DNA of 48,739 nt from Acidobacteriota bacterium (GCA_031393555.1 JANMVW010000317.1:1-48739); one strand, 5' to 3'. Counted from the first letter of the stretch, positions 18,501 to 38,862 are shown. Numbers and translations: made by a program. The notes: a model not told the origin generated them from the sequence alone.

Positions 18501-19878
18501 CCGCCCGGATTTCGGCGGATTGCGCACCCTCTCGGCCGCGGCGGAGGGCCAGTGCCGGCTCGACCTCAATTGGTCCGCCGGTGCCGCGCACTGCGAGGGC
18601 ACGCTCAGCTACAGCATCTACCGGTCGACGAACTCTACGTTCACACCCGCCGTTTCGAATCGCATCGCGAGCGGACTCACGTCCACGTCCTACAGCGATT
18701 CGGCCGTCTTCGGGGGCACGCGGTACTACTACATCGTGCGGGCTGTCGACGGCGCGGGAAACTCCGACACGAACGTCGTGAGACTCTCCGAACGGCCGGC
18801 CGGGACCCTGACGCCGGGGACGTACTCCGACAACGCCGGCGACACCGGCACCGCGAACTTCGGTCTCGGCACGATCGACGTCTACGCGAACACGTGGACC
18901 GTGCGTCCGAACGACAACCCGAACAACGCCACGAAGATCTACGCGACGACGAGCAGCGGCAACTACCTCGACAGCAGTTGCATGGCCCTCGAAAGCGAGA
19001 CGATCTTCCTCGGCGCGAATCCCACGCTGAGCTTCAGCTCGCGCTACGACACCGAGCAAGGGTGGGACGGCGGCTACGTCGACGTGGCCACCGAGGCGGG
19101 CGGATTCAACAACTGGACCAAGCTCGACACCATCAACTACCCCGGAGTCATGACCGGACCTCTCGGAGACCCGGCGTGCGGCACGCCCGGATTCGCCGAC
19201 GGCCAACGGGTCTTCACGGGAACGTCGCCGGTTGCCTACGACCCGTTCAGCGGGTCGTTGTCCGCCTACGCCAACCAGAGGGTGCGGATCCGGTTCCTCT
19301 TCAGTTCGGACTCGTCGACCAATCAGACCGGCTGGTTCATCGACGACATCTCCATTACCGATGCAAAGCTCCCCGGGCCCTGTACGACGGACCTGTGCTT
19401 CGGAGTGTCCTGCAACGACGGGAACGCGTGCACGGACGACGCCTGCAATCCAAGTAACGGGCAGTGCGTCTTCACGAACGACAACACGAACACCTGTAGC
19501 GACGGAAATGCCTGCACGACCGGCGACGCCTGCGGCGGCGGTGCGTGCAGCGGCACGCCCGTCGGGAATCCGGTGGAGGTCGGGAACAGCCTCCGGCTTT
19601 CGCAAAGCGGTGTCACCTCCACCGTCTCGTGGAGCGACGACGGCAACCCCGGGACGTTCCATATCTACAGGGGAATGCGAACCACCGTGGCGCCGTGGAG
19701 CTACAACCAACAGTGCCGGGGAGGTTCGATCGCGGGAACCAGCACGACCGACGGCGATACGCCGTCGTCCTCGTCCACGTACTTCTACTTCGTGACGCGC
19801 ACGACGGCGTGCGGCGAGTCGGTCGCCGGACGGGACAGCACGGGAGCCGCCGTTCCAAACGGCAGCCCATGCCCCTAG
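15532..19878 (+). CDS. Large secreted gluzincin (M4/M36-like) metalloprotease with propeptide, FN3 domains, jelly-roll domain, Cys-rich repeats and conserved C-terminal domain
   Basis: SD GAGGGG; signal peptide; FTP/PepSY-like YRQVVGGVPVEGA and LVDAKTGEVL; HEWGH...GEAMGD; FN3-like LNW...Y.VLR...YYYSV; WDGGYV...GWFIDDI; CNDGNACTDDAC repeats. Confidence 0.82.
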   Translation: MNTFSVSRILGARSAFVMALIVAVGVAVTTTPVFAIRTPAVESLNTRVLAPAGFVATVAPAELSTVIEEVSAETLAAVSAFEAEAGPDWRFYVDRRSGGMALVEGRGIAWTPDNGSQVSLAAFEARSRQFMRRYPSFFRVPDAQLVLDAKASVNVGELGTHWNVVYRQVVGGVPVEGARVVFRIAHGNLVQFGVDRTVPIETASNRVSGLLTATQARSALAQYVGGLLATDRFTEEGTLSWIPRGVDENGPYTGPIGAGWKSEIVYGFTFLRTGSNASWHALVDAKTGEVLRFVDATDYAALAKASVFTSTNCADPLNCVPGSATEVGITMPFANLSFAGGTCTGDACYTNAAGAFNYPSGAVSATTALDGKYFRLIDGCGALASSAVAPGSLDLGTSDPNPPLNTNYDCAPATRQSPPNSGPVTGGSGDTHAARNAFYHLNLINEKARVYLPGNDWVKGIDGGSGAALLNVNLPPACNAFWLGASGSLNFTKATPGLGCNNTGEIADVFLHEWGHGLDQNDATGTAPESGTGEAMGDTFAILQGQHSCIGPGFSLDVSGAWGNQAGYGTGSALCTGVRDSDYTRFCYHGTTMSCSASPDPGDAPNGSRSGFSPLPNPPDSGTPARWNTMISGASNATNGQSNFYNCAGPETNGCAGALNHGCHCESIIGSQANWDLAKKLIAFEFGGDIYRAPQAATEVSGWQYMDRLWYLTRDLSVSSYSATGPAPGGTTNGCGINNWFSTYRFIDDDDGNLADGTPHAGIIFQAMDLHAIACGSASDPSNQPSGCPSPVAAPVLSACDNKAPVQLNWTASAGATQYRVLRNTLGCGFGFTPIGTVTGGRTYYEDAEVASGIPYYYSVQPVGVTQSCYGQASNCIVVTPTTCAATPVGPPTGVTLGTPANNQVSISWNAVVGAGSYKIFRKAGDCSSSAPFVAVSVVNAPTTSFLDSDGLGGQQTYAYQIATSDATCAACASAPSACQSTVVTGACLVRPDFGGLRTLSAAAEGQCRLDLNWSAGAAHCEGTLSYSIYRSTNSTFTPAVSNRIASGLTSTSYSDSAVFGGTRYYYIVRAVDGAGNSDTNVVRLSERPAGTLTPGTYSDNAGDTGTANFGLGTIDVYANTWTVRPNDNPNNATKIYATTSSGNYLDSSCMALESETIFLGANPTLSFSSRYDTEQGWDGGYVDVATEAGGFNNWTKLDTINYPGVMTGPLGDPACGTPGFADGQRVFTGTSPVAYDPFSGSLSAYANQRVRIRFLFSSDSSTNQTGWFIDDISITDAKLPGPCTTDLCFGVSCNDGNACTDDACNPSNGQCVFTNDNTNTCSDGNACTTGDACGGGACSGTPVGNPVEVGNSLRLSQSGVTSTVSWSDDGNPGTFHIYRGMRTTVAPWSYNQQCRGGSIAGTSTTDGDTPSSSSTYFYFVTRTTACGESVAGRDSTGAAVPNGSPCP

Positions 19879-19941
19879 TCGTGAACGACCGTCAGTGAAT
19901 CGCGGAAGGGGATGGAGTCGACCAGGCGCCCCCGCCCAAGG

Positions 19942-21642
19942 TCACTCCATCCCCAACTGCTTGGACAGCAAGTGGGCCTCGGGGTCTTGCGGATAGCGGC
20001 CCCGCCACGCGGCGACGACGTGACGCGCCACCGTCGTATCCCCCTGCTGAAGGGCCAGCTTCACGCGCCCGGAATAGAACGAGAGGTGATCGGGCCATAA
20101 GGCGAGTCCCCGGTCGAGCATCGCCACGGCGCCTTCCGTGTCCCCGATCTCGAAGGCCAGCGAAGCCAAGGCGTAGGCCCTCGGCGGCTCCAATCGCTCG
20201 AACCGATCTCCGATGCCGTGAAGCCCCTCCGCCCGCGCGGCCAGGTACAGCAAGTCGGGGTCGTCCTGGTCGACCGCGAGCCCTCTCTGGGCGAACCGAG
20301 CGGCGGTCTGATTCCTGCCCTGCCTGAGTTCGATCACCGCCAGGTAGCGGAAACCCTCCGTGTAGTCGTGCTTGATCTCGACCGCGCTGGCGAACCGCCG
20401 GCTCGCGTCCTCGAGACTGTCGGTGCGGTAGTCGATCTGGCCGAGAAGCGCCGGGGGAACGTGCGAGCCCGGGTACTCTCCACACAGCGCCGCGAGCTCA
20501 CGCTTGGCAACATCGAGGTCGCCGCGATCGCGGGCGGCCAAGGCCACGTCGAGTCGCCGAATCAAGTCGTCCTGCTTGCGCGCTCCGGCGGAGTGGACCT
20601 GGACGGCGACGAGTCCGAGGACCGCAAGCGTCGTGAGGGGCACCCACCGTCGCTGCCGGCCTCCCCACCCCAGCAGACCGGACGCTGCCGCCGGAACCGC
20701 CGCGACCAAAAACGGCGCGAGCCAGGCTCCCAGGACGAGCCCGACCGCGCCGGCGGCGTATCCGGCCGCCGGGCTCAACGTCTGAATCGTCATCGTAAGC
20801 GCCGGAAGGATCGACAGGAGCAGGCGCGGCTCGCGCGCCATCAGCAACTCGACCGCGGCGGCGTCGATCAGCATGATCGCCAAACCCGTGAGGGGCATCC
20901 AAGCGTGACCCCGTTTACTCCCGTCGCCCGCAAACGGCGTATCGACGGTCGCGAAGCGCATCGCGATCCAAACGAGCGTTGCAAGCACGATCCAGTGCGC
21001 GAGATGGTGGACAGGAATCGGGATGCCGCCCGCACTCCTGTCCGAGAAACAGTGTGCGGCGAAGTGGACCGGAAACGCCAGCAGGGTGACAAACCGCGCA
21101 GGCCGCCCGCGGAGTTCCGGCGCCGTGAGCACGGCGAAGGGAAGCAGAAAATCGGTCCCGACGAAGAACCAGTCGACGATCGCGATGAACGGGACGTTCA
21201 TGAAGAGCGGCTGCGTCACCGGCACGGTCCAGTGCCACCACCCCGCCGCTATCGCCGCCGATTCGACGGCCCAGCTGATCGCCCCGAGGAAGACGCAGGC
21301 CCACGCAATCTGGGGGAACAGCTTCGGAGAGAAACGGGATCCCAGCCACCATCCGATGTAGACGACGATCGCCCATCCGGCAATTTCCTGAGCGGGGACG
21401 TGGAAGACGGTGAACAGCGGGTTCCGGATCGCGTAGGGAAACGAGGCCCCCAGTCCGTGGTCGATCACCCACCTGAGGGCGACCCCTCGAAGGATGCCGT
21501 AAGCCAGAACGCTGAACCAGAAGGCGACGGCCCTCGACCGAGGGAGCGTCCGGAGCGAATGGAAGACGAGCAGGCCCAGAATGACCAGCGATGGGACGCT
21601 CAAGATCAAGACACGGTTATCCACCGGATCGTAGTAAACCAC
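19942..21642 (-). CDS. Polytopic membrane protein with CruF/DUF422-like N-terminal domain and C-terminal TPRs
   Basis: Many TM helices; FHVPAQEIAGW, AIAAGWWHW and FMNVPFIAIVDWF resemble the carotenoid-hydratase (CruF) family; soluble TPR tail. Confidence 0.55.
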   Translation of the reverse strand: MVYYDPVDNRVLILSVPSLVILGLLVFHSLRTLPRSRAVAFWFSVLAYGILRGVALRWVIDHGLGASFPYAIRNPLFTVFHVPAQEIAGWAIVVYIGWWLGSRFSPKLFPQIAWACVFLGAISWAVESAAIAAGWWHWTVPVTQPLFMNVPFIAIVDWFFVGTDFLLPFAVLTAPELRGRPARFVTLLAFPVHFAAHCFSDRSAGGIPIPVHHLAHWIVLATLVWIAMRFATVDTPFAGDGSKRGHAWMPLTGLAIMLIDAAAVELLMAREPRLLLSILPALTMTIQTLSPAAGYAAGAVGLVLGAWLAPFLVAAVPAAASGLLGWGGRQRRWVPLTTLAVLGLVAVQVHSAGARKQDDLIRRLDVALAARDRGDLDVAKRELAALCGEYPGSHVPPALLGQIDYRTDSLEDASRRFASAVEIKHDYTEGFRYLAVIELRQGRNQTAARFAQRGLAVDQDDPDLLYLAARAEGLHGIGDRFERLEPPRAYALASLAFEIGDTEGAVAMLDRGLALWPDHLSFYSGRVKLALQQGDTTVARHVVAAWRGRYPQDPEAHLLSKQLGME

Positions 21643-21676
21643 ACCGGGAGCTTGGCCCGGCTCTCAGATCGCGTGC

Positions 21677-21778
21677 TTGCTCGCCTCAGGCGCCGCCATT
21701 CACTCGAGCACGCCCGGCCAGTTCTTGTCGGCCTTCGCCACGTACCCCGGAATGTCGAGCTGCCATTTTTTCTGCACG
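21677..21778. repeat. Direct repeat copy 1 (102 bp), orphan 3' end of the YHS gene
   Basis: Matches 23029-23130 at 101/102 nt; the one difference is ccccggAatg vs ccccggGatg. The minus strand encodes VQKKWQLDIPGYVAKADKNWPGVLE*. Confidence 0.95.
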
Positions 21779-21805
21779 GACGCTCATGACGCAAACACCG
21801 TAGCC

Positions 21806-21833
21806 TTGAAATCTGAGCGATAACCACTAAGAT
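21806..21833 (+). promoter_or_regulatory. Putative sigma70 promoter for the second AAA+ gene
   Basis: TTGAAA (21806-21811), 16-nt spacer, TAAGAT (21828-21833), in an AT-rich patch before ATG 21848. Confidence 0.4.
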
Positions 21834-21847
21834 TTCATAGTAGAGTC

Positions 21848-23014
21848 ATGAGCGTGATCCAGCGAGCCGAGCATCTGCGACGCCTGTCGAGCCTGACGCG
21901 GCAGTTCCCGGTCGTCGGGATCTTGGGCGCGCGCCAGGTCGGAAAGACGACTCTCGCCCGGCAGCTGGCCAAGGCGCATCGCGGACCGGTGACCTACTTC
22001 GATCTTGAGAGCGCCGAAGACCTGGCCCGGCTCTCGGATCCCTTGCTCGTGCTTCGGCCGCTGACGGGGCTCATCGTTCTCGACGAGGTTCAGAGGCGTC
22101 CAGACCTCTTCACGCAGCTGCGCGTGCTCGTGGACGAGCCGAAGACCCGCCGCAAGTTCCTCGTGCTCGGGAGCGCATCGCCCGAGCTGCTGCGACAGAC
22201 CTCGGAGACCCTGGCCGGACGCATCGCGTACCACGAGTTGGCGGGCTTGTCTCTCGAGGAAGTGGGTCGACAACACTGGTCGAAGCTGTGGCACCGGGGC
22301 GGGTTCCCGCGATCTTTTCTGGCGCGGTCCGAATCCGACAGTCTTCAGTGGCGCAAGGCCATGATCCGGACGTTCCTCGAGCGGGACATCCCGGCTCTTG
22401 GCTTGCGGATGCCTGCGGCCACGCTCCGGCGGTTCTGGATGATGCTGGCTCATTACCACGGACACGTGTGGAACGCTTCCGAGTTCGCTCGATCCTTCGG
22501 TGTCGCCCACACGACGGTGCAACGCTATCTCGATCTGCTCAGCGCAACTTTCATGGTTCGGCAGCTCCCCGCGTGGCACGAGAACATCGGCAAGCGGCAA
22601 GTCAAGGCTCCGAAGGTCTATCTGAGGGATAGCGGCCTGCTTCACGCGCTGCTCGGTCTCGACGCGGGTGGCGCCATCGAGTCGCATCCGAAAGTCGGCG
22701 CCTCGTGGGAGGGGTTCGCTCTCGATGCCGTCGTGACGCAACTCGGAGCGCTTCCGGAAGAGTGTCACTTCTGGGCGGCTCACTCCGGCGCGGAGCTCGA
22801 TCTTCTGATCGTCCGGGGCAACGTACGGCGTGGATTCGAGTTCAAGAGAACGACGTCTCCGGCGAAGACGCGCTCGATGCACGTCGCGCTCGAAGATCTC
22901 CGGCTGTCGTCGGTCGACGTTATCCACGCGGGATCGAATTCTTTCTCTTTGCACGCGAAGATCCGAGCGATCGCGCTGAGCCGTCTGCTCGAGGATCTCA
23001 AGCCGCTGAAGTAA
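21848..23014 (+). CDS. AAA+ ATPase, COG1373 type (AAA_14 + DUF4143)
   Basis: GARQVGKTT, IVLDEVQ, LGSAS, SETLAGRI, KAPKVYLRDSGLLH, ELDLL...FEFK; 388 aa. Confidence 0.92.
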   Translation: MSVIQRAEHLRRLSSLTRQFPVVGILGARQVGKTTLARQLAKAHRGPVTYFDLESAEDLARLSDPLLVLRPLTGLIVLDEVQRRPDLFTQLRVLVDEPKTRRKFLVLGSASPELLRQTSETLAGRIAYHELAGLSLEEVGRQHWSKLWHRGGFPRSFLARSESDSLQWRKAMIRTFLERDIPALGLRMPAATLRRFWMMLAHYHGHVWNASEFARSFGVAHTTVQRYLDLLSATFMVRQLPAWHENIGKRQVKAPKVYLRDSGLLHALLGLDAGGAIESHPKVGASWEGFALDAVVTQLGALPEECHFWAAHSGAELDLLIVRGNVRRGFEFKRTTSPAKTRSMHVALEDLRLSSVDVIHAGSNSFSLHAKIRAIALSRLLEDLKPLK

Positions 23015-23028
23015 CGACGCGTCAGCGG

Positions 23029-23130
23029 TTGCTCGCCTCAGGCGCCGCCATTCACTCGAGCACGCCCGGCCAGTTCTTGTCGGCCTTCGCCACGTACCCC
23101 GGGATGTCGAGCTGCCATTTTTTCTGCACG
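23029..23130. repeat. Direct repeat copy 2 (102 bp), 3' end of the intact YHS gene
   Basis: 101/102 identical to 21677-21778. Confidence 0.95.
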
Positions 23131-23516
23131 TCCAGGTCGTAGTTCAGGTAGAGCTTCCCCTCGACGATCGACCAAGCGTTCGGGTCGATATCGACGAGGC
23201 GCCCTTGCGAGACGGCGTAGGCGCAGTAGCCCCCGTATTGCGGGGCGTATTTCTCAGGCGTCTTCTTGAAGACATCGCGATGCTCGGCCGTGGCAAAGCG
23301 CCACTTGGCCCCCTTCCACTCGAACTCGAACTCCGCTTTTCCCGGCAGAGGCTTTCCGTCGACGAAGTAGGCGACCGGGTCGTAACCGTGGATCGCCTTG
23401 TTGCCGAAAAGCGTGGTGTTCACGGGGTCCTTGGACCAAGCGGCCGTGGGCACGACGAGGAACGACACAACCAACGCGACCAGGCCCGCGATGCGGGCTG
23501 CGGTGAAGGGCTTCAT
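23052..23516 (-). CDS. Exported YHS-domain protein
   Basis: SD AAGGAG; signal peptide; AIHGYDPVAYF, WRFAT, PEKYAPQYGGYCAYAV, IVEGKLYLNY. Confidence 0.9.
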   Translation of the reverse strand: MKPFTAARIAGLVALVVSFLVVPTAAWSKDPVNTTLFGNKAIHGYDPVAYFVDGKPLPGKAEFEFEWKGAKWRFATAEHRDVFKKTPEKYAPQYGGYCAYAVSQGRLVDIDPNAWSIVEGKLYLNYDLDVQKKWQLDIPGYVAKADKNWPGVLE

Positions 23517-23724
23517 GGGTTCTCCTTTGGATCCAGAAGGCTATCAGCCCTGTCGACGATCCTGCTGCACCATTCCGGCTCCATCCGTGCGCGGAAGCAA
23601 GAACAACCCTGGCCGAGGTTGCGGCGACGCAACCCAGTCGGACGTCGTTGCGTGGTTGGCATCTTCGTCGTTGCGGTACCCTCAGGTCGTCGGTCCCGAT
23701 CCACCGCTCCTCCTTGGTCGTTCC

Positions 23725-23753
23725 TTGACGCCACAGTTCCAGGGCCGTAGGCT
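23725..23753 (+). promoter_or_regulatory. Sigma70-type promoter of NYN unit 1
   Basis: TTGACG (23725-23730), 17-nt spacer, TAGGCT (23748-23753). Confidence 0.65.
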
Positions 23754-23759
23754 TCCGGC

Positions 23760-23834
23760 GGAACGAAAATTCCAATCCCCCCTATCCCTTCGCGGATAGG
23801 GTGCGAGGCTGCCGAAAGGCAGCCTCTGCTTTTT
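23760..23834 (+). ncRNA. Structured leader RNA: two hairpins plus U-tract (attenuator or small-RNA candidate)
   Basis: CCCTATCC-cttcgc-GGATAGGG (23780-23801); GAGGCTGCC-GAAA-GGCAGCCTC (23805-23826); TTTTT directly before GTG 23835. Confidence 0.55.
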
Positions 23835-24227
23835 GTGGCTCGCGCCAACGTCTACGTCGATGGGTTCAACCTCTACTACGGCTGTGTCAAAGACACGCCG
23901 TACAAGTGGCTCGACCCCGCAAGGCTTGCAGCTCTGCTGTTGCCTCGAGGCTGTCACGTCCATCGGGTCCGTTATTACACGGCTCGCGTGAGCGGACGCC
24001 CCGGAAATCTCAACGCGCCGAGGCGTCAGGAAACCTAGCGCATTGCACGTCGAGAATTCGGAATTCAAGTCGGTATCGGTTGCCCTCACGAACGTCCGAG
24101 TCAGGTCCTCCGGCGTCAGGCGGATTTCGTTCGACCGATACGCGTGGGCGTCCTGCGCGTCAGTCAACTCCCGACGACCCTGAGTGATGGCCACGGCACG
24201 TTTACGAAGCCCTCGTCATGGCGATGA
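23835..24227 (+). pseudogene. NYN/LabA-DUF88 (PIN-like) ribonuclease with internal deletion and in-frame stop
   Basis: N-terminus VYVDGFNLYYG...YKWLD...VRYYTA...RRQET, then TAG (24036-24038). The same frame continues with a NYN-like C-terminus RIARREFGIQVG...ADFVRPIRVGVLRVSQLPTTLSDGHGTFTKPSSWR*. The central EKxxDV and SxDxD motifs are absent. Confidence 0.8.
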
Positions 24228-25295
24228 CCGACTCAGGTCGAACACACTTCGCCACTCCCCGCCCAGCGACTTGTAAGTCGTCTCGGGCGCCCACACCTGA
24301 CCGCCGGTGTGCTCGACCTGGGCGTAGGCCCATCGCGTCACCTGCCGCGAAACGTCGAAGTCGAAGGGCAGGTGACGGGCGATGAAGCTCGCCGTAAGCT
24401 CGTCCTTCGCGTCCTCGTTGCGCCGGAGCCACCGTTCGAGGAAAGGCACGTCGGCCAGCAGGTCGCTCTTGCGCGAATTGCAGCCGTCATCCGCCAGGAC
24501 GAAGTTGTGGGCAAGATCGACCGGATACCGACGCCACGGCACAAAGTGGTCGACGGCCCCGCGCCCGCGCAGCCGGGCGTCGCAGTAGAAGCACTGATCC
24601 TTTTGCAGTGGGCCGAGAATCGTGCGGTAGTCCGAGAGGTCCGCGCGGGGTGTCCCGAAGAGAAACTCCTCGAGGTCGACGGCCTGCCCGAGTACGTCGT
24701 GGTTGGCGCCCAGCTGCCGGACGAACTGCGCCCATGCCGAACGGGCGAGGCCCGTGACGAGCGGATGGAATTGGCGCAGGTTGAACGCGACACCCGGTTT
24801 CAGGACGATGGCGGTACCGCGCTCCCGGTTCTCGTAAAGGAACTCCAGCTTGCGGCCCTTCAACGTCTGGAGCTTCCACAACGGCATGACGGCCACGACG
24901 TGCTTCACTTTGGCGATCAGCGACCTCCACTCGCGCGAATTTCGGCGGACCTCGACTTCGTAGGCCGACACCCGCTCGCGGACTTCGAAGACGCGGGTCA
25001 GAACCTCAGCCTGCTTCCCGGCGTTTTGCCGCAGGACCACCGCATCTTTGGCGCGTCCCGCGGGAGACCAGGGCGCAGCCTGGCGCCAGTAGTAGGCGAC
25101 GAACTTCTCGGCGATCTTCTCGATTGGGATTTCAAGCTCTCGTCCGTCGTCGACTTCGGACTCGATCGCGAGATCGGCGAGGGCTATCAGCAGCGCAAAC
25201 TTGTAGCTCGCCACGAACTGGCCTTCGTCGAGCAGCAGCTGGATGTTCGCGAGGAACGCGATCTGCTCGTCCGAGGTTGGCGGGCGAGACGTCAC
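24216..25295 (-). CDS. HNH endonuclease domain protein
   Basis: N-terminal ASYKFALL motif; C-terminal CFYC...VDHFVPW...HNFVLADDGCNSRKSD. GTGA-coupled to the HIT gene. Confidence 0.85.
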   Translation of the reverse strand: MTSRPPTSDEQIAFLANIQLLLDEGQFVASYKFALLIALADLAIESEVDDGRELEIPIEKIAEKFVAYYWRQAAPWSPAGRAKDAVVLRQNAGKQAEVLTRVFEVRERVSAYEVEVRRNSREWRSLIAKVKHVVAVMPLWKLQTLKGRKLEFLYENRERGTAIVLKPGVAFNLRQFHPLVTGLARSAWAQFVRQLGANHDVLGQAVDLEEFLFGTPRADLSDYRTILGPLQKDQCFYCDARLRGRGAVDHFVPWRRYPVDLAHNFVLADDGCNSRKSDLLADVPFLERWLRRNEDAKDELTASFIARHLPFDFDVSRQVTRWAYAQVEHTGGQVWAPETTYKSLGGEWRSVFDLSRSSP

Positions 25296-25678
25296 GGCTT
25301 CGTCCAGTAGTCGGCTTTCTCCGGAAGCACCCAGCGCACGCCCCCGCGCGGGTCCGGGCGGTCGCCGTCGTACCGCGGGATGAGATGCACGTGCAGATGG
25401 GAAACCGTCTGCCCGGCGGCAGCGCCGTCGTTGATGCCGATCGTCCAGCCGTCGGGCCGATGTGCCTGGACTACGGATTCTTTGGCGAGCTCCAGCGATT
25501 CAAGAATCGCGCGGCGTTCCTCGGGTGTCGTTTCGAAGAACGAGCCAACGTGACGGTGCGGAATGACGAGGACGTGACCCGGCGAAACGGGGAAGCCATC
25601 GCGTAGCACAAACACCAAGCTGTCGTCATGCAGGACGCGATCGCGATCCGGCCGACAGAACGGGCAGGCAACGCTCAA
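25292..25678 (-). CDS. HIT-family nucleotide hydrolase
   Basis: TTG start at 25678 after GGAGG; CPFC, DGFPVSPGHVLVIP, GINDGAAAGQTVSHLHVHLIPR; 128 aa. Confidence 0.92.
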   Translation of the reverse strand: MSVACPFCRPDRDRVLHDDSLVFVLRDGFPVSPGHVLVIPHRHVGSFFETTPEERRAILESLELAKESVVQAHRPDGWTIGINDGAAAGQTVSHLHVHLIPRYDGDRPDPRGGVRWVLPEKADYWTKP

Positions 25679-25852
25679 ACGGAGTCCTCCGTCGCAGGCA
25701 AGAGGCACGGATAAGGGATTGTAGGCGAGGTTGCGGAGAAGCAACCCATTTTGGATTTGATCCGGGCGGAAGAGTTCCACGACCGCGGTAAGCTTGGAAG
25801 GTCGGTCCTGGCGGCCCCCTCGTCGCCCGCTCTGCGCGGCGTCGGAACATCC

Positions 25853-25881
25853 TTGACGGTCGTTGGATCGGTCGGTAGATT
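25853..25881 (+). promoter_or_regulatory. Sigma70-type promoter of NYN unit 2
   Basis: TTGACG (25853-25858), 17-nt spacer, TAGATT (25876-25881). Confidence 0.65.
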
Positions 25882-25887
25882 CTTCGA

Positions 25888-25971
25888 CGTGCTTCCTCAC
25901 GGGGGAGCTTCAAACCGCCCCAGGGCCTGCGCGGCGCCATTCGGTTTCGAGCCGCCCTGGGTATTTTCTTC
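25888..25971 (+). ncRNA. Structured leader RNA: two stems plus U-rich tract
   Basis: GCTTCCT-cacg-GGGGAGC (25891-25908); CCCAGGGC (25919-25926) pairs with GCCCTGGG (25954-25961); then TATTTTCTTC and the TTG start. Confidence 0.5.
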
Positions 25972-26349
25972 TTGAGCGTCTGGGCGACACGCTCCATCGT
26001 GTTCATCGATGGCGCCAATCTGTATTCGTCCTTGAAGGCGAGCGGGATCTGGGCCAATCGCATCGACCCCTACAAGGTCGCGAAGAAGCTCGTCGAGCAG
26101 CGAGCCCTGATTGAAGTTCGTTATTACATCGCCGAGATCCAGCGGGCAGCGCCTGGCCGCGTCTATCGGGCTTTCCGCGAGTTGATAGCGCTGCTCGGTC
26201 GGCATGACGACGTACGAATCTGCACAGGGCATATTCAGGAAATCCAAGAGGCCAACCCTGCGTCACCCCATGTCGCAGGGCGACTGATCGACGTTTGCGA
26301 TGTGGCGATTCGGCTCGATCCGGACTGGTTTGAGGACTGTGGCCGATGA
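25972..26349 (+). pseudogene. NYN/LabA-DUF88 ribonuclease, probably internally deleted in frame
   Basis: IVFIDGANLY...EVRYY... is joined directly to a NYN-like C-terminus (ASPHVAGRLIDVCDVAIRLDPDWF). Only 125 aa, lacking the EKxxDV and SxDxD catalytic motifs. Confidence 0.65.
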
Positions 26350-32000: not shown

Positions 32001-32091
32001 TCTGCACGTGCTGAAAGCCCGGCGTGCCTCGGGCCAGAGCACCCATCCTTTCTACTGGGCGGCGTTCGTCGCGGCCGGCGACTGGCGGTGA
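29017..32091 (+). CDS. Exported TPR-CHAT (caspase-like) protease
   Basis: GTG 29017 overlaps the cyclase stop; signal-like N-terminus; kinesin-light-chain-like TPRs (LGPDHPQVASSLTNLA); CHAT dyad LHLATHG and LSACDTG; HPFYWAAF. Confidence 0.92.
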   Translation: MRQLVLKMVGVAFLLTTFALAAAPPTLEDLRALVADGEYEQAGTGARARLADIDAAGRGESMDAAETIDVLVESRWRNGEAAEGDTRALAARSLAIKERISGPDSVGVAATLHQLAVVDFFSGDYEHARAEWERALAIREKVLGPDHLDVGETANALANLLQTTGEFEAARPMYERAVAIREKGLGKDNPKVGQSLNNLASLLTVLGDYAAALPVAERSLQIKEKALGPDHPQVASSLTNLADIYDQTGDRERARKLFERAAAIYEKKLGPDNPLVGTALNNLAEQLRRDGKLEEARPLYKRVIANWEKAYGPEHERVALALSNDALLLAAAGELTAAQAENERAAIIREKALGPKHPDLAGTLGQLSDVLAAMGNYEAALPLYERAATILRQSLGPAHPSLAQAELGLSRVEAQRGSLDRAFDLSLESEHISRDHLRLTGRSFSEEQSLRYAAERPFGLDLALSLAVERPGKVSTPTLFDALVRSRAVVLDEMAARNRSVVVSTSPEVARLAETLAGVRSRLANMTVRGLGSLDPEAYRALLDRTRDEKEQAERALGAASAEFAEEQQRARVGLDEVLAARPPKSAVVAYVVYRHQLLPPAAPDPKAKPEPLPKPVLSLAAVVMAPGKAVPEVVRLGSVETIDALVRGWKQEAARGASNGRRTPKESDAAYRAAGGALKAAIWDPIAGRLGGADRVFLVPDGSLNLVTFASLPVGKKGYLIETGPALHYLSAERDLVPRSGEARHGSGMLALGGPDYDAGSTARPSAEKTSGTRSAGCASFESLRFDPLPASEREAEDVVALWKDAAASNAGLVTETLYFHGASATEAAFKHGASGRRMLHLATHGFFLGGECAVGGASSRGFKVVEEQAPAPRVAAYVSPLLLSGLALAGANRRASAPASDEDGVLTAEELASLDLSGVEWAVLSACDTGVGEIQAGEGVFGLRRAIQLAGVHTLVMSLWPVDDEATRAWMAALYRGRLMKHLDTVASVREAGLHVLKARRASGQSTHPFYWAAFVAAGDWR

Positions 32092-32187
32092 GAATCTTCC
32101 GGCAATCGTGACTTGTTCAACGTAAATTCCCGCGGGCGCTCGATTCAGCGTCCGTCTTGCGATCCTGAAGGATCGGGGGGTCCCATC

Positions 32188-35100
32188 GTGCGCCGTTCAA
32201 CGCGGACTGTCTTCCTGTCACTCAGCCTCGCCGCCTCACCCGTGTTGGCCCTCGCGGCGCAGATCCCCTTCGGCCCGCAGGAAATCGTTTCGACGAGCAA
32301 TGGCATCGGACTCGATGTCATCGCGGGGGACCTGGACGGGGACGGCGACTTAGACCTCGTCGGCTCCGGCGGGTCGAACGCTGGATCCGGAGTCTACTGG
32401 TACGAGAATCTCGATGGGACGGGGAAATTCTCGACGTCGCGTGCGATCGGCGCCGGACAGCTCGAGAATCGAGGCAGCATCGAATTGGTGGACATGGACC
32501 AGGACGGCGACCTGGATCTGCTCTCCGGATGGTTCTATCTGGCCGCGTGGTATCCGAACGACGGTCACGGCAACTTCGGCGCGCGCACCGTGATTCGCGA
32601 CGAGACGTTCAATGGGGCCGGGTACGACGAGTTCGCGGCGGCGGATCTGGACGGCGATGGGGATCCCGACGTCATCGGCCTTTCGGGGTCGGTGTTCGGC
32701 CCGACCGACAAGCTCGTTTGGTTCCGCAACAACGGCGGAGGAACGTTCAATCCCGCGACCGAGAACTTCATCGATGCCCTGGCGAACGAAAACGGGGTTG
32801 GCCACGTGGCCCCCGCCGACCTGGACGGCGATGGGGACATCGATCTGGTGGCGACCCAGACCGCGCCGTTCGGCGGCGACAATCGAGTGGTCTGGTACAA
32901 GAACATCGACGGCGCGGGCAGCTTCTCCGGAAAACTAACGATCTCCACGGCGACACAGCAGCTCAGTGACGTCGCCGTGACCGACGTCGACGGCGATGGA
33001 GATCTCGACGTGGTCTCGGCGGACTACGGCTTCAACGCGGTCCGCTGGCACGAGAACACGGCCGGAAACGGGAGCGCCTGGACCGACCACCTCATCGACG
33101 CGACGGCTTCCGTGAGTTATTTCGTCAACGTTGCGGACATGGATCTGGACGGCGACCCGGACGTGCTCGTGGCCACGCGCGTCACGAACGAAGCGCGCTG
33201 GATCGAGAACACGGCCGGAAATGGATCGGCCTGGACGAACCGATTGATCACCGGCGGTGTCGCCAATCCAGCCGCCACGATCGCCGCCGACCTTGACGGG
33301 GACGGCGATCTGGACGTGGCCACCGCGTCGGTCAACGACAACAAGATCGCCTGGAACGAGAACCGCACGATACATCGCAATGCGGTATTCGGCGCCAGTG
33401 TCAACATGGACGGAACCGTGGGGCAGATGACGCCGCCGCGGGTCGCCGACCTCGATCGCGACGGCGACCCGGATGTCGTCGTGACCATGCGCACCGATGG
33501 CCGCCTGGTCTGGCTCGACAACAACGGCACCTCCCCCGACCTCTGGCCGTTGCGCAACGTCGCGACCGGGATTCCGTCGTTCACCGAGTCGTCCACCGTC
33601 GCCGACCTTGATGGCGACGGAGATCTCGACGTGGCGATCAGTCCGGGCGGAGGTTTCCTCCACTGGTATCAGAGTAACGGCGCACCGCTGCCCGCCTTTA
33701 CCGACAGGTCCATCCCCAGCAGCCTGACCCCGGGACTCCGAGTCGCATCGGGAGACATCGACGGCGACGGCGACGTCGACCTCCTCGCCCTCTCCTACTC
33801 CGCTTTGGCGTGGTACGACAACGACGGCGCCGCGCTTCCGGGCTGGACCGAACGCTCGATCACCGGTTCGTTCACCAATCCGAGGGCCCTGCTGTTGGCC
33901 GATCTCGACCGGGACGGCGACCTCGATGTGGTGACGAGCAACGCCGACGCTCCGCGACTCGTCTGGTACGAGAACAACGGCGCCACCCCGCCGTCGTGGA
34001 CCGCGCGCACGATTCTGACTCCCCCCGAGGCGATCACCGTGGAGGCCGCGGACGTTGACGGCGATGGGGACCTCGACCTCGTGGCCGCGTCCGCAACCGG
34101 ATCCACCGTCTTGTGGTTCCAAAACGGCGGCGGGTCGCCGATTGCGTGGACCCAGAGGACCGTCGCGTCCGGGTTCGTCGCGTTGAACGCCGTCCCCATC
34201 GATCTCGACCGGGACGGGGACATCGACATCATGACCAGCAACTCCGGAGTCAACCAGATCTGGTACGAGAGCAACGGAGGCTCTCCGCCGTTGTGGACGC
34301 CTCGGAGTTTCGCCGCGTTCAACCAGCGCTACTGGGCCCCCATCGATTTGAACGGCGACGGGGACGTCGACTTGATCCAAGGCTCTTACCCTACCCCCGT
34401 GCTCTCCGCGTTCGAGAACCTAGGCGGGCAGTACGGCTTCACCGGCGCGGACGTCTCGACCGGCGCGGCGTACGACGGCGAGGTCGTCCCTGTGCTCGCC
34501 GTCTCCGTGCAAGTGAACGGGCGGCCGGGCGATTCGGTGGGTCGCGTTGCGACGCTCGACATCAAACTGGAATCGGGGTCGCACGTCGCCCTGAGCAGCG
34601 CGCAGGCCAACGCGTTGTTCGACGAGCTGCGCGTCTATAGGGACGACGGCGATGGAACCTTCAAGGAGAGTCAGGACATCCTCGTTGCGACCGTGGGCAC
34701 GTTGTCGCTGACGGGCGGCGTGCAGACCGTGACGCTTCCAGCCAATGACCCGAATGTCCGGGTGGCCGCGCCGGCGACCTTCTTCGTCGCGCCGCTGATG
34801 GCGCCGAACGCTTCGGTTCAGGCGGTCAGTTCGTTCTTCGCCATCCATCGCGCCGCGGCCGGGAGCATCGTCGTGGATGCCAACGCGGGCCTCACTCTCG
34901 TCGGCGCCGCCACGACCGACGTGACGACCGCGAGTGCCGTCCAGGCTCGTCCGCGATTCGTCGTGAACGCGACGAGCGATGCGGTGGATGCGAGCCCCGG
35001 CGACGGGGTCTGCGCCACCGCCGGCAGCGTCTGCACGCTGCGGGCCGCGATACAGGAGGCCAACGCGCACGCGGGTGTGGACCGGATTGTGCTTCCCGTC

Positions 35101-38100
35101 GGGACGTTCACAATCACCGTTGCCGGGACCAATGAGGACGCCGCGGCCACCGGCGATTTGGACATCACCGACGCCTCCGGCCGACTGACGCTCGTGGGCC
35201 AGGGCGCGGACAAGACCGTCATCGTCGGCGACGGCATCGATCGCGTCTTGCACCTGCCCGGCTCCGCCGCGCTGACCCTCGAGGACGTCACCATCACGGG
35301 TGGCCACGGTAACGTCCCCGTCCCGATGGGCGGTGGTCTTTTGCTCACTGGAACCAGTTCCGCGACGATCCGACGCTGTTCGTTCCGGGGGAACGACGCC
35401 ACCGCGAGGGGTGGCGCGCTCGCCATCAACGGCGGCAGCGTCCTCACCGTCGAGGACAGCGTGTTCCACGGAAATACGGGTTTCGAAGTCTCGACCATCC
35501 AAGCCAACAGCAGCGGTTCCACCAGCCTGTCGAACTGCACGATTTCCGGGAACACCGCGGCTTCGGCCACGGGTGTGGCGGTTGAGGGCGCGAGCCCCAT
35601 GACGCTTTCCGGTTGCACGGTGAGCGGGAACACGGGCGGGCTTCGCTCCACCGGCGTGTCCATCACGCTCGCGAATTCCATCGTGGCCGGGAACCCGAGC
35701 GCCGGTCTGACCGGCGACGACATCAACACCGGATCATTCGTCAGCTCCGGTTACAACCTGATCGGGGAATCGGCCTCGGGGGCGTTCGTCAACGGCGTGA
35801 ACGGCGACAAGGTGGGGAGCATCGGTGCTCCGCTCGATCCCAAGCTGAAGCCGCTCGGTGAGTACGGCGGTCCCACATTGACGCAGCCGCCCTTCACCGC
35901 GAGCCCCGCCGTCGACGCCGGGCGTTGCGGAACCCTGGTCAAGGACCAGCGCGGTGTGAAGCGGCCGATCGATTTGACCGGGGTGGCCAACGCCAACGAC
36001 GGCTGCGATATGGGCGCCTACGAGGTCGAGAACGGTACGGCGCTGTCGCGCCTCGAGGTTCCGATTCGCTGGTGCGGCCTGCACGGGTCGCCTTCCATCG
36101 AGAACCCGAGCCTCATGGGAGCGGGCAACGTCAACGACCTGCTGCGCCTGCGCCACGAGGTGGCGTCGGACAACATCTATGCGCCCCAAACGGGGATCGC
36201 CTTCCGCTCGGCGGCGAACTTCTCCATCGCCAACTACCCGGTTCTCGAAGATCCCGATTGCGTGCAAGTGACGCCGGGGAACTACTCCTGCACGAAGGGC
36301 GTCCGGGGCGACGTGTACATCGACCCCAACGCAGCCATCTTCGACGAGTACGAAGAGCTGATCGCGGCGTGCCGTGCGGCCTGGCAGGCGACGGACCCGA
36401 AGATCGAAGGGATCACCGCGGTCCAGATCAACCACTTCGTCGACAAGAATGGGACGCCTCTCTCGATCCTGGGGATCGGCGGCCGCGCCAAGGAAGGCGA
36501 TGTCAGGGAGCAGGCGGACGCCGGTCGCGCCGCGGTCGTGGATCACTTCTATAGGCAAAGCGCAAATCCCTCGGACACGATCGACCGGCTCTTGGGGCAC
36601 GAGCTGGGCCACGCCCTGTCGCTGCGCCACGGGGATGGGCTCGACAACGATGTCAACGGCGTGATCGACGACAACGACGAGGCCGTCGTGGGGCTTCCGC
36701 GGTTCGACGGCAACAACGTCATGCAATACCGGTCCGGCACCACGCTCACCACGGGTCAAGCGACCCAAGCGCGGAGCCACCTCTTGGCGACGGTGCCGGA
36801 TGTGGCCGTCCAGCCGTTCTCGGACGCGGTCCCCAACGCCGTTCCGACCGATCCGGCCAACGCGAGGGTCCTCGAATTCGGATTCGGCGGCGTGCTCAAC
36901 CTCGCGAACGCGCGCGTGCTCGAGTTCAAAAACGCCAACGTCCTCGAGTTCGAGAACGACAAGATCCTGGATTTGGCGAATGCGCGCGTGCTCGAGTTCA
37001 AAAACGCCAACGTCCTCGAGTTCGAAAACGCCCGCGTGCTCGAGTTCGGGATGAGCTACGACGGCGAGGCCGGAACCGCGAGCACGAGGCTGCACGCGAC
37101 GACCGGGGCGATCCCTTGGCCGCCGTCGCTGCGTCCGGCGACCCGCTACTTCTTCTATCTCGACGTCGATCGCGACGATGGGACGGGCGCCTATCCGGCG
37201 GACAAGGTCAATCCGTCAGACGCGCCCAACCACTTTCCGGGCTCGAACAACTTCCTGCGGAGCCCCAATGTGGCCGTGGAAGCCGGAGTGGACCTGATCG
37301 CGCAGGTCGAAGTCCAATCGTCGTGCGCCGGAACGCAGTGCTCGACGACGTCGCTGGTGCGCATCTTCGACTACAACGACGCCACCGGTTTGTACACGCA
37401 GGTCTCCTCCAGCCCGTCGCCGACGATCACGGCGGTCGACGCGGCCTTGTACATCGACAACGGCGGTGCGCCGGTCGACCTCGACACGGCGTCTTCCGGG
37501 ATCACGGTCCAGCCCGCCATCCCGAACTCGCTGCTCTTCGCGGCAGGCTGGGGCTTCACCACGCCACCGGGAGGAGGCGCCCCGGTCCCCAATCCGGTGC
37601 GGATGGAAGTGCTGACGACGATCGGCTGCGTCGGCAACGTCCTCAACGACGGATCGGCCGCGTCGTCTCGCAATTGCCAGTGCGTAAGCTGCGCGTCCTG
37701 CCCGAACTACCCCGGATGCGTGGGGAGCGTGGGCGTTCCGCAAACCCTGACGGGGACGACGATCCTCGCGGATCATCGGGCGGCCGAGCTCACCTTCCAG
37801 CCTCCCGTTCTCCCGGCATGCAACGTCATCCCCGTGCAGGCCTCGCAGGGGCAGGCGGTGGCCGTCTACGTGACGAACCTGCCGACCAATCTCGCGGGCA
37901 CGGTCGAGGTCACTCGCAACGGGTCGGTCATCGGAACCGCGCCGGTGGCGTCCATCAGCCCGGCCGGATTTGTCAGCGTCGCGGCGACGCTTCCACCGAC
38001 AGCCTTGGGCCAGGTGACCTTGTCGACGGGGATCACCGGCTACGCGCCCAGAGCGCAATGCGTGGTCACCGTCTCTTCGAGTCTCGCCTGTCCCGACGCC

Positions 38101-38862
38101 GACGGCGACGGGACTTGCGACAACGTCGATAGCGACGACGACAACGACGGCGTGACCGACGCCGGCGACGCGTCGCCGCTGAACCCGCGGGTCTGTCGCG
38201 ACGTCGATCTCGACCAGTGCGACGACTGCGCAAGCGGCGTGAGCGCTCCCTTGCTCGACGGCCCGGACTACGACCACGACGGTCTGTGCGATTTCGGCGA
38301 TCCCGATGACGACAACGACGGCGTGCTCGACGCGGCGGACGGTCAACCGAAAAACAGCAACGCGTGCGGCGACACCGATGGCGACCAGTGCGACGACTGC
38401 GTCATCGCCGCCTCGCCGAGCCCGGGGAACGACGGACCCGACGTCGACGCCGACGGTCTGTGCGATTTCGGCGATCCGGACGACGACAACGACGGCGCCT
38501 CCGACTGGGCCGACTGCGCACCGCTCAACGGAACGTTGAAAGCCTCTCCCGTCGAGGTCGCCGGTGTCGGGCTCGGATCGGGCGGCAACAAGAACCGCTT
38601 GAGCTGGACCGCGCCGCAAGCGCAGGGAGGATCGGCGACGTTCAGCGACGTGGTCCGCGGCACGGGCAGCGGGCTTCCGGTCGGAAGCGGCCCCGAGAGT
38701 TGCGTCGCAATACAAACCTCGGCGGCGCAGGTCGACGATGCGACCTCACCGACGCCGGGCCAGCTGCTCTGGTACTTGGTCCGCGCGCGAAACGCCTGCG
38801 GCCTGGGGGGCTACGGAACGAGGACCGGGGGCGTGGAGCGAACGACGAGCGCGTGTCCGTGA
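32188..38862 (+). CDS. Giant secreted multidomain protein: FG-GAP repeats, CSLREA/beta-helix/choice-of-anchor-Q-like region, metzincin-like domain, octapeptide repeats, TSP3-like Ca-binding repeats, conserved C-terminal domain
   Basis: Probable GTG start at 32188 with a signal peptide (frame open from 32113); many DxDGDGDxD repeats; CTLRAAIQEAN; DQRG...CDMGAYE; HELGHALSLRH...NVM; DDDNDG repeats. Confidence 0.88.
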   Translation: MRRSTRTVFLSLSLAASPVLALAAQIPFGPQEIVSTSNGIGLDVIAGDLDGDGDLDLVGSGGSNAGSGVYWYENLDGTGKFSTSRAIGAGQLENRGSIELVDMDQDGDLDLLSGWFYLAAWYPNDGHGNFGARTVIRDETFNGAGYDEFAAADLDGDGDPDVIGLSGSVFGPTDKLVWFRNNGGGTFNPATENFIDALANENGVGHVAPADLDGDGDIDLVATQTAPFGGDNRVVWYKNIDGAGSFSGKLTISTATQQLSDVAVTDVDGDGDLDVVSADYGFNAVRWHENTAGNGSAWTDHLIDATASVSYFVNVADMDLDGDPDVLVATRVTNEARWIENTAGNGSAWTNRLITGGVANPAATIAADLDGDGDLDVATASVNDNKIAWNENRTIHRNAVFGASVNMDGTVGQMTPPRVADLDRDGDPDVVVTMRTDGRLVWLDNNGTSPDLWPLRNVATGIPSFTESSTVADLDGDGDLDVAISPGGGFLHWYQSNGAPLPAFTDRSIPSSLTPGLRVASGDIDGDGDVDLLALSYSALAWYDNDGAALPGWTERSITGSFTNPRALLLADLDRDGDLDVVTSNADAPRLVWYENNGATPPSWTARTILTPPEAITVEAADVDGDGDLDLVAASATGSTVLWFQNGGGSPIAWTQRTVASGFVALNAVPIDLDRDGDIDIMTSNSGVNQIWYESNGGSPPLWTPRSFAAFNQRYWAPIDLNGDGDVDLIQGSYPTPVLSAFENLGGQYGFTGADVSTGAAYDGEVVPVLAVSVQVNGRPGDSVGRVATLDIKLESGSHVALSSAQANALFDELRVYRDDGDGTFKESQDILVATVGTLSLTGGVQTVTLPANDPNVRVAAPATFFVAPLMAPNASVQAVSSFFAIHRAAAGSIVVDANAGLTLVGAATTDVTTASAVQARPRFVVNATSDAVDASPGDGVCATAGSVCTLRAAIQEANAHAGVDRIVLPVGTFTITVAGTNEDAAATGDLDITDASGRLTLVGQGADKTVIVGDGIDRVLHLPGSAALTLEDVTITGGHGNVPVPMGGGLLLTGTSSATIRRCSFRGNDATARGGALAINGGSVLTVEDSVFHGNTGFEVSTIQANSSGSTSLSNCTISGNTAASATGVAVEGASPMTLSGCTVSGNTGGLRSTGVSITLANSIVAGNPSAGLTGDDINTGSFVSSGYNLIGESASGAFVNGVNGDKVGSIGAPLDPKLKPLGEYGGPTLTQPPFTASPAVDAGRCGTLVKDQRGVKRPIDLTGVANANDGCDMGAYEVENGTALSRLEVPIRWCGLHGSPSIENPSLMGAGNVNDLLRLRHEVASDNIYAPQTGIAFRSAANFSIANYPVLEDPDCVQVTPGNYSCTKGVRGDVYIDPNAAIFDEYEELIAACRAAWQATDPKIEGITAVQINHFVDKNGTPLSILGIGGRAKEGDVREQADAGRAAVVDHFYRQSANPSDTIDRLLGHELGHALSLRHGDGLDNDVNGVIDDNDEAVVGLPRFDGNNVMQYRSGTTLTTGQATQARSHLLATVPDVAVQPFSDAVPNAVPTDPANARVLEFGFGGVLNLANARVLEFKNANVLEFENDKILDLANARVLEFKNANVLEFENARVLEFGMSYDGEAGTASTRLHATTGAIPWPPSLRPATRYFFYLDVDRDDGTGAYPADKVNPSDAPNHFPGSNNFLRSPNVAVEAGVDLIAQVEVQSSCAGTQCSTTSLVRIFDYNDATGLYTQVSSSPSPTITAVDAALYIDNGGAPVDLDTASSGITVQPAIPNSLLFAAGWGFTTPPGGGAPVPNPVRMEVLTTIGCVGNVLNDGSAASSRNCQCVSCASCPNYPGCVGSVGVPQTLTGTTILADHRAAELTFQPPVLPACNVIPVQASQGQAVAVYVTNLPTNLAGTVEVTRNGSVIGTAPVASISPAGFVSVAATLPPTALGQVTLSTGITGYAPRAQCVVTVSSSLACPDADGDGTCDNVDSDDDNDGVTDAGDASPLNPRVCRDVDLDQCDDCASGVSAPLLDGPDYDHDGLCDFGDPDDDNDGVLDAADGQPKNSNACGDTDGDQCDDCVIAASPSPGNDGPDVDADGLCDFGDPDDDNDGASDWADCAPLNGTLKASPVEVAGVGLGSGGNKNRLSWTAPQAQGGSATFSDVVRGTGSGLPVGSGPESCVAIQTSAAQVDDATSPTPGQLLWYLVRARNACGLGGYGTRTGGVERTTSACP
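36859..37050 (+). repeat. In-frame tandem repeat, 8 x 24 nt (consensus N-A-x-V-L-E-F-x)
   Basis: NARVLEFG/FGGVLNLA/NARVLEFK/NANVLEFE/NDKILDLA/NARVLEFK/NANVLEFE/NARVLEFG; 36904-36957 and 36976-37029 match at 52/54 nt. Confidence 0.9.

Follow-up and report, generated by a model that had tools for sequence, protein, structure and literature searches.

The sorting domain of the type IX secretion system (T9SS) of Bacteroidota (Por_Secre_tail, TIGR04183/PF18962) is a lineage-restricted β-sandwich of about 80-100 residues that ends many unrelated Sec-exported enzymes and adhesins, dozens per genome. The same slot at the end of the chain is filled elsewhere by the PEP-CTERM/exosortase, MYXO-CTERM/myxosortase, GlyGly-CTERM/rhombosortase and LPXTG/sortase systems, whose short tripartite signals consist of a motif, a transmembrane (TM) helix and a basic cluster. 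Dockerin and SLH modules of cellulosomal and surface proteins are a further case: one small module is found on many enzymes behind a linker, mostly at the C-terminus with other positions tolerated, and it acts by binding and not as a translocation signal. Here we describe a domain that shares features with each of these. It ends two giant proteins encoded on a 48,739-nucleotide (nt) stretch of DNA from an Acidobacteriota bacterium (GCA_031393555.1, JANMVW010000317.1:1-48739; the whole stretch is called the window below), where each chain stops directly after a domain of about 100 amino acids (aa) whose last two residues are Cys-Pro. This domain, the CP tail, closes exported proteins of one lineage in many paralogous copies, is missing from curated libraries and probably marks where its carriers are placed outside the cell.

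The CP tail resembles the T9SS sorting domain in size, fold class, position, diversity of cargo and restriction to a lineage. Unlike that domain, it also occurs in N-terminal and internal copies and ends in Cys-Pro with a probable disulfide, and neither a sequence match between the two domains nor SprA was found. With the short tripartite signals it shares the slot and the kinds of cargo (choice-of-anchor, DNRLRE, CSLREA, M36-like, TSP3), and with MYXO-CTERM an invariant Cys, a feature of that signal given in a preprint (10.1101/2023.06.07.544157). It has no motif, TM helix and basic cluster, however; the chain ends in a folded domain, and exosortase was not found in the genome. By analogy with dockerin and SLH modules the CP tail may act by binding, but its fold is that of fibronectin type III (FN3), not of a Ca-binding dockerin or of SLH, and true dockerins and cohesins are encoded separately in the genome. 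Bacterial Fn3 modules (the Fn3-like 3mpc of C. thermocellum and the Fn3 of CtXyl5A, 5g56) are the closest by profile and fold, although only the CP-tail family has the Gly-rich extension, the pair of Cys, the Cys-Pro terminus and the habit of closing the chain. PPC (PF04151) is likewise a C-terminal β-sandwich on secreted peptidases, but it does not match the CP tail, whose carriers reach far beyond peptidases.

The window is contig C368 of a 3.79-Mb assembly (478 contigs, 66% G+C, 98.6% complete). The two carriers, P0001 and P0002, and their parts lie in it as follows.

15532..19878, + strand: carrier 1 (P0001, 1448 aa), exported and metallopeptidase-like (HEWGH at residues 512-516), with FN3-like domains within the chain, a domain resembling MAM and, ahead of the CP tail, a Cys-rich stalk
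15532..15636, + strand: signal-peptide-like N-terminus of carrier 1, 35 residues, from sequence and heuristic
19381..19569, + strand: Cys-rich stalk directly 5' of the tail of carrier 1, a partial match to Pfam Dicty_CTDC (E 6e-7)
19570..19875, + strand: CP-type FN3-like tail of carrier 1, residues 1347-1448, with Cys codons starting at 19714, 19810 and 19870 and the stop codon at 19876-19878
32113..38862, + strand: carrier 2 (P0002, 2249 aa as read from TTG, true start uncertain), with FG-GAP/VCBS repeats, CSLREA, β-helix, choice-of-anchor Q, HELGHALSLRH, an acidic TSP3-like stalk and the CP tail
32191..32262, + strand: signal-peptide-like stretch of carrier 2, residues 27-50 of the frame as read
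38089..38547, + strand: acidic, Cys-containing TSP3/MopE-like stalk directly 5' of the tail of carrier 2, ending in 'DCAP', a motif that precedes many copies
38548..38859, + strand: CP-type FN3-like tail of carrier 2, residues 2146-2249, with Cys codons starting at 38701, 38797 and 38854 and the stop codon at 38860-38862

Both tails read as in the first-pass annotation of the window (19570-19878 and 38548-38862, a stop codon directly following each), and its claim of a shared tail of about 100 aa at the exact end of the chain holds. Tail 1 is the last 102 residues of the 1448-aa open reading frame (ORF) at 15532-19878, and tail 2 the last 104 residues of the 2249-aa ORF at 32113-38862; their similarity is weak but real (22 of 86 positions identical by BLASTP, E 1e-4). 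Outside the tails the two proteins are unrelated in Pfam-A and NCBIfam scans, again as claimed: P0001 has weak, sub-threshold matches to FTP/PepSY propeptides, the HEWGH motif, a MAM-like domain and a Cys-rich repeat, and P0002 has 14 FG-GAP-type repeats, a CSLREA N-terminal motif, a β-helix and a choice-of-anchor Q domain. Neither library holds a model for either tail at E<=1, bar one chance-level match. Signal peptides had been proposed for both proteins, and both N-termini are indeed signal-peptide-like. Three shared Cys had been proposed as well; they are present in this pair (residues 1395, 1427 and 1447 of P0001; 2197, 2229 and 2248 of P0002), but in the family as a whole near-invariance is limited to the middle and the terminal one. 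P0002 also contains, at 36907-37048 (+), a 24-nt tandem repeat of 5.9 copies encoding the eight-residue unit N-A-R-V-L-E-F-x, about 90 residues downstream of the metzincin-like HELGHALSLRH (36598-36630), a motif that no Pfam model matched.

A hidden Markov model (HMM) was built from these two tails only and searched over all stop-to-stop six-frame ORFs of the genome, followed by three more rounds. The two-tail HMM alone brought out dozens more ORF ends, which excludes chance similarity of the two tails. After iteration the genome has 64 domain matches, 53 of them strong (E<=1e-10); the 11 weaker ones are generic FN3-like domains or fragments. A stop codon follows within two residues in 44 of the 53 strong copies, whose last two residues are CP in 41, CQ in two and LP in one, and three more copies lie 3-14 residues from the stop. 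Three copies follow directly on a signal peptide and another three are internal. A few diverged tails were missed by the HMM, for example in two ORFs of contig C58 that end in 'C-x9-CP'. CP ranks fourth among the last dipeptides of the 2365 ORFs that are at least 200 aa long and likely to be coding (48 cases). Contig breaks fall inside many carriers, as expected of a repeated element. Two paralogous ORFs (C316:2-1150 and C13:2-448) run past an internal CP-type domain into more TSP3 repeats and stop after '...CDI'; this end is unusual for the family and could be a genuine short terminus or the result of a frameshift or an assembly break.

The tails constitute one distinct, undescribed subfamily of the FN3 fold, in which an FN3 core is followed by a Gly-rich Cys-Pro extension of its own. 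The consensus of the core (about 85 residues) is W...Y-D/N-V-x-R-G...C...D...P..G..[FWY]Y-L-V-R-A, and that of the extension (about 18 residues) is N-x-C-G-x-G..G..S-x-G..R....C-P. Across an alignment of 22 tails, one Trp, one Pro and the closing Cys and Pro never vary. The mid-domain Cys is almost as constant, and roughly one copy in three lacks the Cys of 'N-x-C-G'. AlphaFold2, applied to the same alignment, gives a β-sandwich of six strands with an irregular final segment (pLDDT 87, about 86 over the last 24 residues; pTM 0.81). Fold searches with this model place FN3 domains on top, both with VIA-align (Z 10.4, rmsd (root-mean-square deviation) 2.0-2.5, 83-88 residues aligned) and with Foldseek (best E 4e-3), the matches being limited to model residues 1-91. 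The sequence profile finds the Fn3-like protein 3mpc_A (E 1.4e-6, profile positions 7-84 only) and the Fn3 of 5g56 (E 9e-5, core only). The model, the fold searches and the profile match thus bear out the FN3-like character first ascribed to the two tails. Pfam fn3 (PF00041) matches none of the 22 tails at E<=1, and no match to Dockerin_1 (PF00404), to carbohydrate-binding module (CBM) families or to PPC (PF04151) was found on the tails. Prediction of a complex of two tail copies (score 0.00, mark 0.42) speaks neither for nor against their pairing. A protein search with one tail returned 15 close relatives, 'hypothetical' where named and with the tail free of Pfam domains, and a full-text search of the literature found no description of this domain.

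The Cys-Pro end looks like a feature of the fold and not a terminal cleavage or processing motif, since internal copies retain CP, usually with 'C-D-C-A-P' in front. The C-terminus of an FN3 domain is found at that end of the sandwich where the C' strand begins. The last Cys is most likely disulfide-bonded to the C'-strand Cys, judging from conservation and this topology, with the Pro acting as a cap. A role of the last Cys in lipidation or cleavage was considered and dropped: internal copies keep CP, and the last Cys co-occurs with the middle one. In one locus of a relative (L045) only these two Cys remain within the final 125 residues. Other families of the phylum have varied ends ('...C-Q', '...C-S', or an added 'C-x4-11-C' loop), and the chain stops 0-3 residues past a Cys. 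The loop marks lineage-specific variants of the tail and follows the usual last Cys in loci L038, L043, L053, L058 and L062 (genome G179), L036 and L057 (G062), and L037 and L041 (G130); the tail variants of G179 have an additional Cys near the B strand.

The carriers are exported proteins of many kinds. A signal-peptide-like start, as called by a crude heuristic, is present in 28 of the 32 N-complete carriers versus 912 of 4126 background ORFs, and by eye two of the four misses resemble signal peptides; no cytoplasmic-type carrier was seen among the carriers examined. The cargo found in the 20 complete carriers scanned and in the exceptional ones includes M36-like, S8, M1 and M14 peptidases, a multicopper oxidase, purple acid phosphatases, β-helix, FG-GAP and ThuA-like proteins, and a di-haem peroxidase with a propeller. 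Several carriers match NCBIfam families that are named for alternative anchors, namely choice-of-anchor Q and I, DNRLRE and CSLREA, the rhombosortase- and myxosortase-dependent M36 families, and the TSP3 part of the MYXO-CTERM protein MtsC. The tail thus fills the slot held elsewhere by C-terminal sorting signals. A Cys-rich and/or acidic TSP3/MopE-like stretch comes before 30 of 42 tails.

Exceptions to the terminal position are of two kinds. The N-terminal copies are on an FGE-sulfatase-like protein and on an RHS-repeat protein, the latter found on two contigs with near-identical N-terminal parts (C243:3-6212, -, and C124:1758-3212, +). The RHS-repeat protein is longer than 2070 aa and has seven RHS repeats and DUF6531, with the CP-type domain directly after the signal peptide. 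In RHS proteins the C-terminus is reserved for the toxin tip. The internal copies sit between TSP3 or MopE arrays, or ahead of a further domain. One carrier (on contig C412) is composed of two cohesins, a MopE motif and the CP tail, an arrangement known from anchoring scaffoldins, whose cell-surface module stands where the tail does here.

All 41 genomes examined, which belong to the genus, family, order or class of the window's genome, have the domain, with between 11 and at least 120 matches in each. In a sample of the phylum Acidobacteriota it is found in 64 of 301 genomes (E<=1e-5). These are all 27 sampled genomes of the window's class, that of the window among them, and some members of about a dozen further families; in family f35, 16 of the 20 sampled genomes have it, in f18 1 of 15 and in f33 1 of 8. 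The phylum tallies of the tail and of the secretin-type cohesin discussed below include one unpublished genome (G187), and that of exosortase also two others (G063 and G088); their omission shifts counts by 1-3 and leaves the conclusions unchanged. The end position is kept in relatives: in all 42 loci with a match (12 from relatives or close metagenome-assembled genomes and 30 from five other families, chosen as top-scoring matches), the best match ends within 11 residues of the stop. A closed relative (G020) has 99 matches at E<=1e-8, and in a dense 260-kb stretch of its genome the domain lies within three residues of the end in 15 of 17 carriers, 14 residues from it in one, and at the N-terminus in one (residues 142-240 of a 2172-aa ORF). 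A locus search with a single tail gave three loci, and two close contigs are 88% and 71% identical to one tail. Against 1.84 billion protein representatives there were 16,076 matches at E<=1e-3 and 4,499 at E<=1e-10. Among the best 150 of the 16,076, ranked by summed score, 24 proteins contain two or three complete units; 18 of these finish in CP with their last unit, and in the other six every unit is internal. Copies of the subfamily score 60-105 bits, versus roughly 12 bits per copy in tandem FN3 arrays (511 bits over 43 stretches).

The scan of genome and phylum with an HMM from the two tails had been set beforehand as the test of the first-pass annotation, and it came out in favor. The family is lineage-specific, as proposed, being restricted to part of one phylum. 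Few paralogues, cytoplasmic carriers or an ordinary FN3 repeat had been named as outcomes that would tell against the proposal; paralogues are many, no carrier of cytoplasmic type was seen and Pfam fn3 does not match, but internal copies, named in the same place, do occur. The expectation of strictly C-terminal hits on signal-peptide proteins accordingly stands for 47 of the 53 copies, which are at or near the end, and fails for the three N-terminal and three internal ones and for the internal units found between TSP3 arrays elsewhere.

Known sorting systems were looked for in the window's genome. The T9SS tail (TIGR04183) gave no match, a weak negative because control genomes were also silent, and neither tail of the window matched TIGR04183 or TIGR04131 of NCBIfam at E<=1. 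No candidate for SprA (TIGR04189) was found, nor did any control genome give a match, and other T9SS components were not searched for. Exosortase (PF09721) gave no match in the genome, with a positive control; myxosortase and rhombosortase were not searched for. There was no PEP-CTERM (PF07589) match in the genome, the control being silent, and a heuristic scan of the genome for C-terminal TM segments with basic ends revealed no recurring family. Full-length exosortase (E<=1e-20, counted by hand from the tables) occurs in 59 genomes of the phylum sample, in 1 of the 45 tail-rich genomes (those with five or more tail matches) versus 58 of the 256 others. This anticorrelation is a clade effect and not independent evidence; the tail-rich lineages are largely without exosortase.

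The genome does encode secretins, a GspE-like ATPase and a GspF-like protein. One gene just downstream of GspF- and GspE-like genes (C396:22534-25107; L083:14535-17108, +) encodes a type II-like secretin lipoprotein with a lipobox-like LSAGC and Secretin_N and Secretin domains, which ends in a Pro/Ala/Glu-rich linker of about 100 residues and a cohesin (PF00963, 30.6 bits, above cut-off). With a single query, this secretin-type cohesin was found in 139 of the 301 sampled genomes, and most matches fall in open frames of 750-1000 aa. It was found in all 27 genomes of the class, in 37 of the 45 tail-rich genomes and in 102 of the 256 that are not tail-rich, and it was not found with that query in 8 of the 18 tail-rich genomes outside the class. 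It was rejected as a partner specific to the tail, its spread being much wider than that of the tail, with no specific co-occurrence. A full-text search of the literature for 'secretin', 'cohesin domain' and 'type II secretion' in combination found no paper. In all, the window's genome has eight cohesin and two dockerin matches (contigs C412, C370, C168, C227 and C409); the dockerins are true ones, in proteins other than the tails. The protein on C227 has both a dockerin and a cohesin, and the dockerin protein on C168 ends in '...SCP'.

The reading that we prefer, tentatively, is that the CP tail is a disulfide-stapled, position-tolerant module of an FN3 subfamily that localizes or anchors exported proteins at the cell surface or in the matrix. 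A carrier would be exported by Sec and would fold in the oxidizing periplasm, where the last Cys would be linked by a disulfide to the Cys that opens the C' strand and so fix the end of the chain on the sandwich, with the final Pro as a cap. The likely route across the outer membrane would be the genome's type II-like machinery. Thereafter the tail, placed at the chain end and usually behind a stiff Cys-rich or calcium-type acidic stalk, would hold unrelated enzymes, adhesins, cohesin scaffold-like and RHS-repeat proteins at the surface or in the matrix. In this reading the family itself, with its copy numbers, end position, fold class, Cys pattern, carriers and taxonomic range, is what was observed, and the disulfide, the tethering and the route are deduced.

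A number of observations weigh against this proposal. The internal copies between TSP3 arrays would suit a plain spacer as well. The tail family grades into common FN3 domains, since ordinary tandem FN3 arrays are found with its profile too, with low scores for the single domain and matches that always stop short of the end of the model; the best 150 protein representatives mentioned above are mostly long arrays of this kind. About six likely coding ORFs of the genome, including one dockerin and two β-helix proteins, end in CP without the domain, and a Cys-Pro end may be a general habit of this organism's exported proteins and not specific to the domain. The disulfide is deduced from conservation and FN3 topology, signal peptides were called by the crude heuristic, the ORFs are stop-to-stop frames and not gene calls, and the occurrence of the tail across relatives does not count as independent evidence. 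Neither a binding partner nor a ligand nor a dedicated gene turned up for the tail. Among ORFs within 6 kb of carriers, clustered into families, only common regulators, kinases and antisense artefacts recur. In the carrier-rich 260-kb stretch of G020, a Pfam scan of 105 of the 117 non-carrier ORFs (nine more ORFs crossing locus borders lay outside the 117 and the scan) found an ordinary mix, with efflux, TonB/ExbBD, kinase and peptidase genes, and no secretion or sorting system. Two carriers are adjoined by GT-C/TPR membrane proteins resembling protein O-mannosyltransferases (C451:13035-15140 and C13:1258-3000), which we do not take as enriched, about a dozen full-length paralogues being present elsewhere.

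How the position of the tail is to be understood decides between several of the alternatives. The tail could be a true C-terminal secretion or sorting signal in the manner of the T9SS, with a dedicated, undescribed outer-membrane translocon or sortase that reads the tail in its folded state, perhaps cleaving it and linking the cargo covalently. The parallels with T9SS cargo (size, a β-sandwich, a place at the very C-terminus, dozens of varied cargo proteins in a genome, confinement to a lineage), together with the failure to find other known sorting systems in this genome, agree with such a signal. We nevertheless consider it unlikely, as 6 of the 53 strong copies are N-terminal or internal, multi-copy internal units occur elsewhere, the CP kept in internal copies is not a terminal recognition motif, and no candidate machinery lies near the carriers; the lack of a T9SS tail match and of SprA points the same way, weakly, given the silent controls. 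The tolerance of other positions and the retention of Cys-Pro in internal copies are what favor an anchoring module over a signal of this type. Of the roles that the first-pass annotation offered, export signal or surface anchor, the strict T9SS-type signal is therefore the one that suffers from the N-terminal and internal copies, whereas a module that works wherever it is placed accommodates them. The undescribed secretion or attachment pathway that it implied is still a conjecture, with no co-occurring transport or attachment machinery found near the carriers. One form of it, to which we give a minor share of the probability, is a surface-display pathway specific to Acidobacteriota, in which the tail, perhaps together with the stalk, would be a cargo tag by which folded, disulfide-bonded proteins are read at a type II-like secretin or another outer-membrane receptor, the cargo being retained on the cell. 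A narrower proposal is that the tail, alone or with the acidic TSP3/MopE stalk, partners the genome's cohesins, including the secretin-tethered one, so that cargo is captured or retained at the pore. The excess of cohesin over dockerin matches (eight to only two), the cohesin at the end of the secretin lipoprotein beside GspE/F-like genes, and its presence throughout the class and in most tail-rich genomes are in its favor, but the same cohesin is also common in genomes that are not tail-rich and was missed by the single query in nearly half of the tail-rich genomes outside the class, and true dockerins are at hand in the genome. We regard this partnership as very unlikely.

Other explanations dispense with a sorting role. 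The tail might be an ordinary structural FN3 spacer or a protease-resistant end cap without a part in localization, in a lineage that simply builds from FN3, TSP3 and Cys-rich pieces. The FN3 fold and a profile related to cellulosomal Fn3 spacers, the further, weakly matching FN3-like domains in the carriers, the alternation of internal copies with TSP3 arrays, and the CP ends of some exported proteins without the domain are all what it would lead one to expect. It gives no reason, however, why the domain should come last in 47 of 53 copies and in 42 of 42 best-match loci, why it should shift to the other end of the chain when the C-terminus is occupied, or why the subfamily is so sharply conserved, with 60-105 bits per copy versus roughly 12 in tandem arrays; overall it seems somewhat unlikely. 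Binding of a common extracellular polymer (the cell's own exopolysaccharide, lipopolysaccharide or an environmental substrate) in the way of a CBM, which would concentrate enzymes on that polymer without a tie to surface proteins, would agree with the many hydrolases and oxidases among the carriers and with the similar placing of FN3-like modules in bacterial glycoside hydrolases. The carriers also include FG-GAP, β-helix adhesin-like, RHS-repeat and cohesin scaffold-like proteins, however, and no CBM family was matched, which makes polymer binding distinctly unlikely, although it overlaps with anchoring if the polymer is the cell's own envelope.

Some other genes of the window may be mentioned. 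Directly upstream of P0002 (27059-32091, +) are a CHASE2-adenylate/guanylate cyclase gene and then a gene for a TPR-CHAT protein of about 1100 aa; their longest ORFs overlap by about 300 nt, and the CHAT gene probably starts later. A 275-aa signal-peptide protein with full-length DUF6689 (E 1e-81) is encoded at 6743-7570 (+), among Ser/Thr kinase, FHA-GAF and TPR genes. Paralogous AAA_14/DUF4143 ATPase genes are present at 2656-3819 (+) and 21848-23014 (+), and a third copy is in the carrier-rich stretch of G020.

Little is known of the way in which Acidobacteriota, an abundant and largely uncultured phylum, position enzymes outside their cells. The CP tail adds to their annotation, as Pfam-A and NCBIfam leave it blank, and its patchy spread in the phylum permits a search for its partner or machinery by phylogenetic profiling. 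If the tail is merely a stable end cap, it is still a new and sharply defined FN3 subfamily. If it is an anchor or a sorting tag, it would bring a new fold to the few known bacterial protein-sorting signals and would show surface display in a lineage without exosortase or T9SS; as the tag of a display pathway, it would be the functional counterpart of T9SS and exosortase sorting, with a different fold and different machinery. One end domain carried by 10 to more than 100 exported proteins per genome allows the likely surface proteome of a whole class to be listed from sequence.

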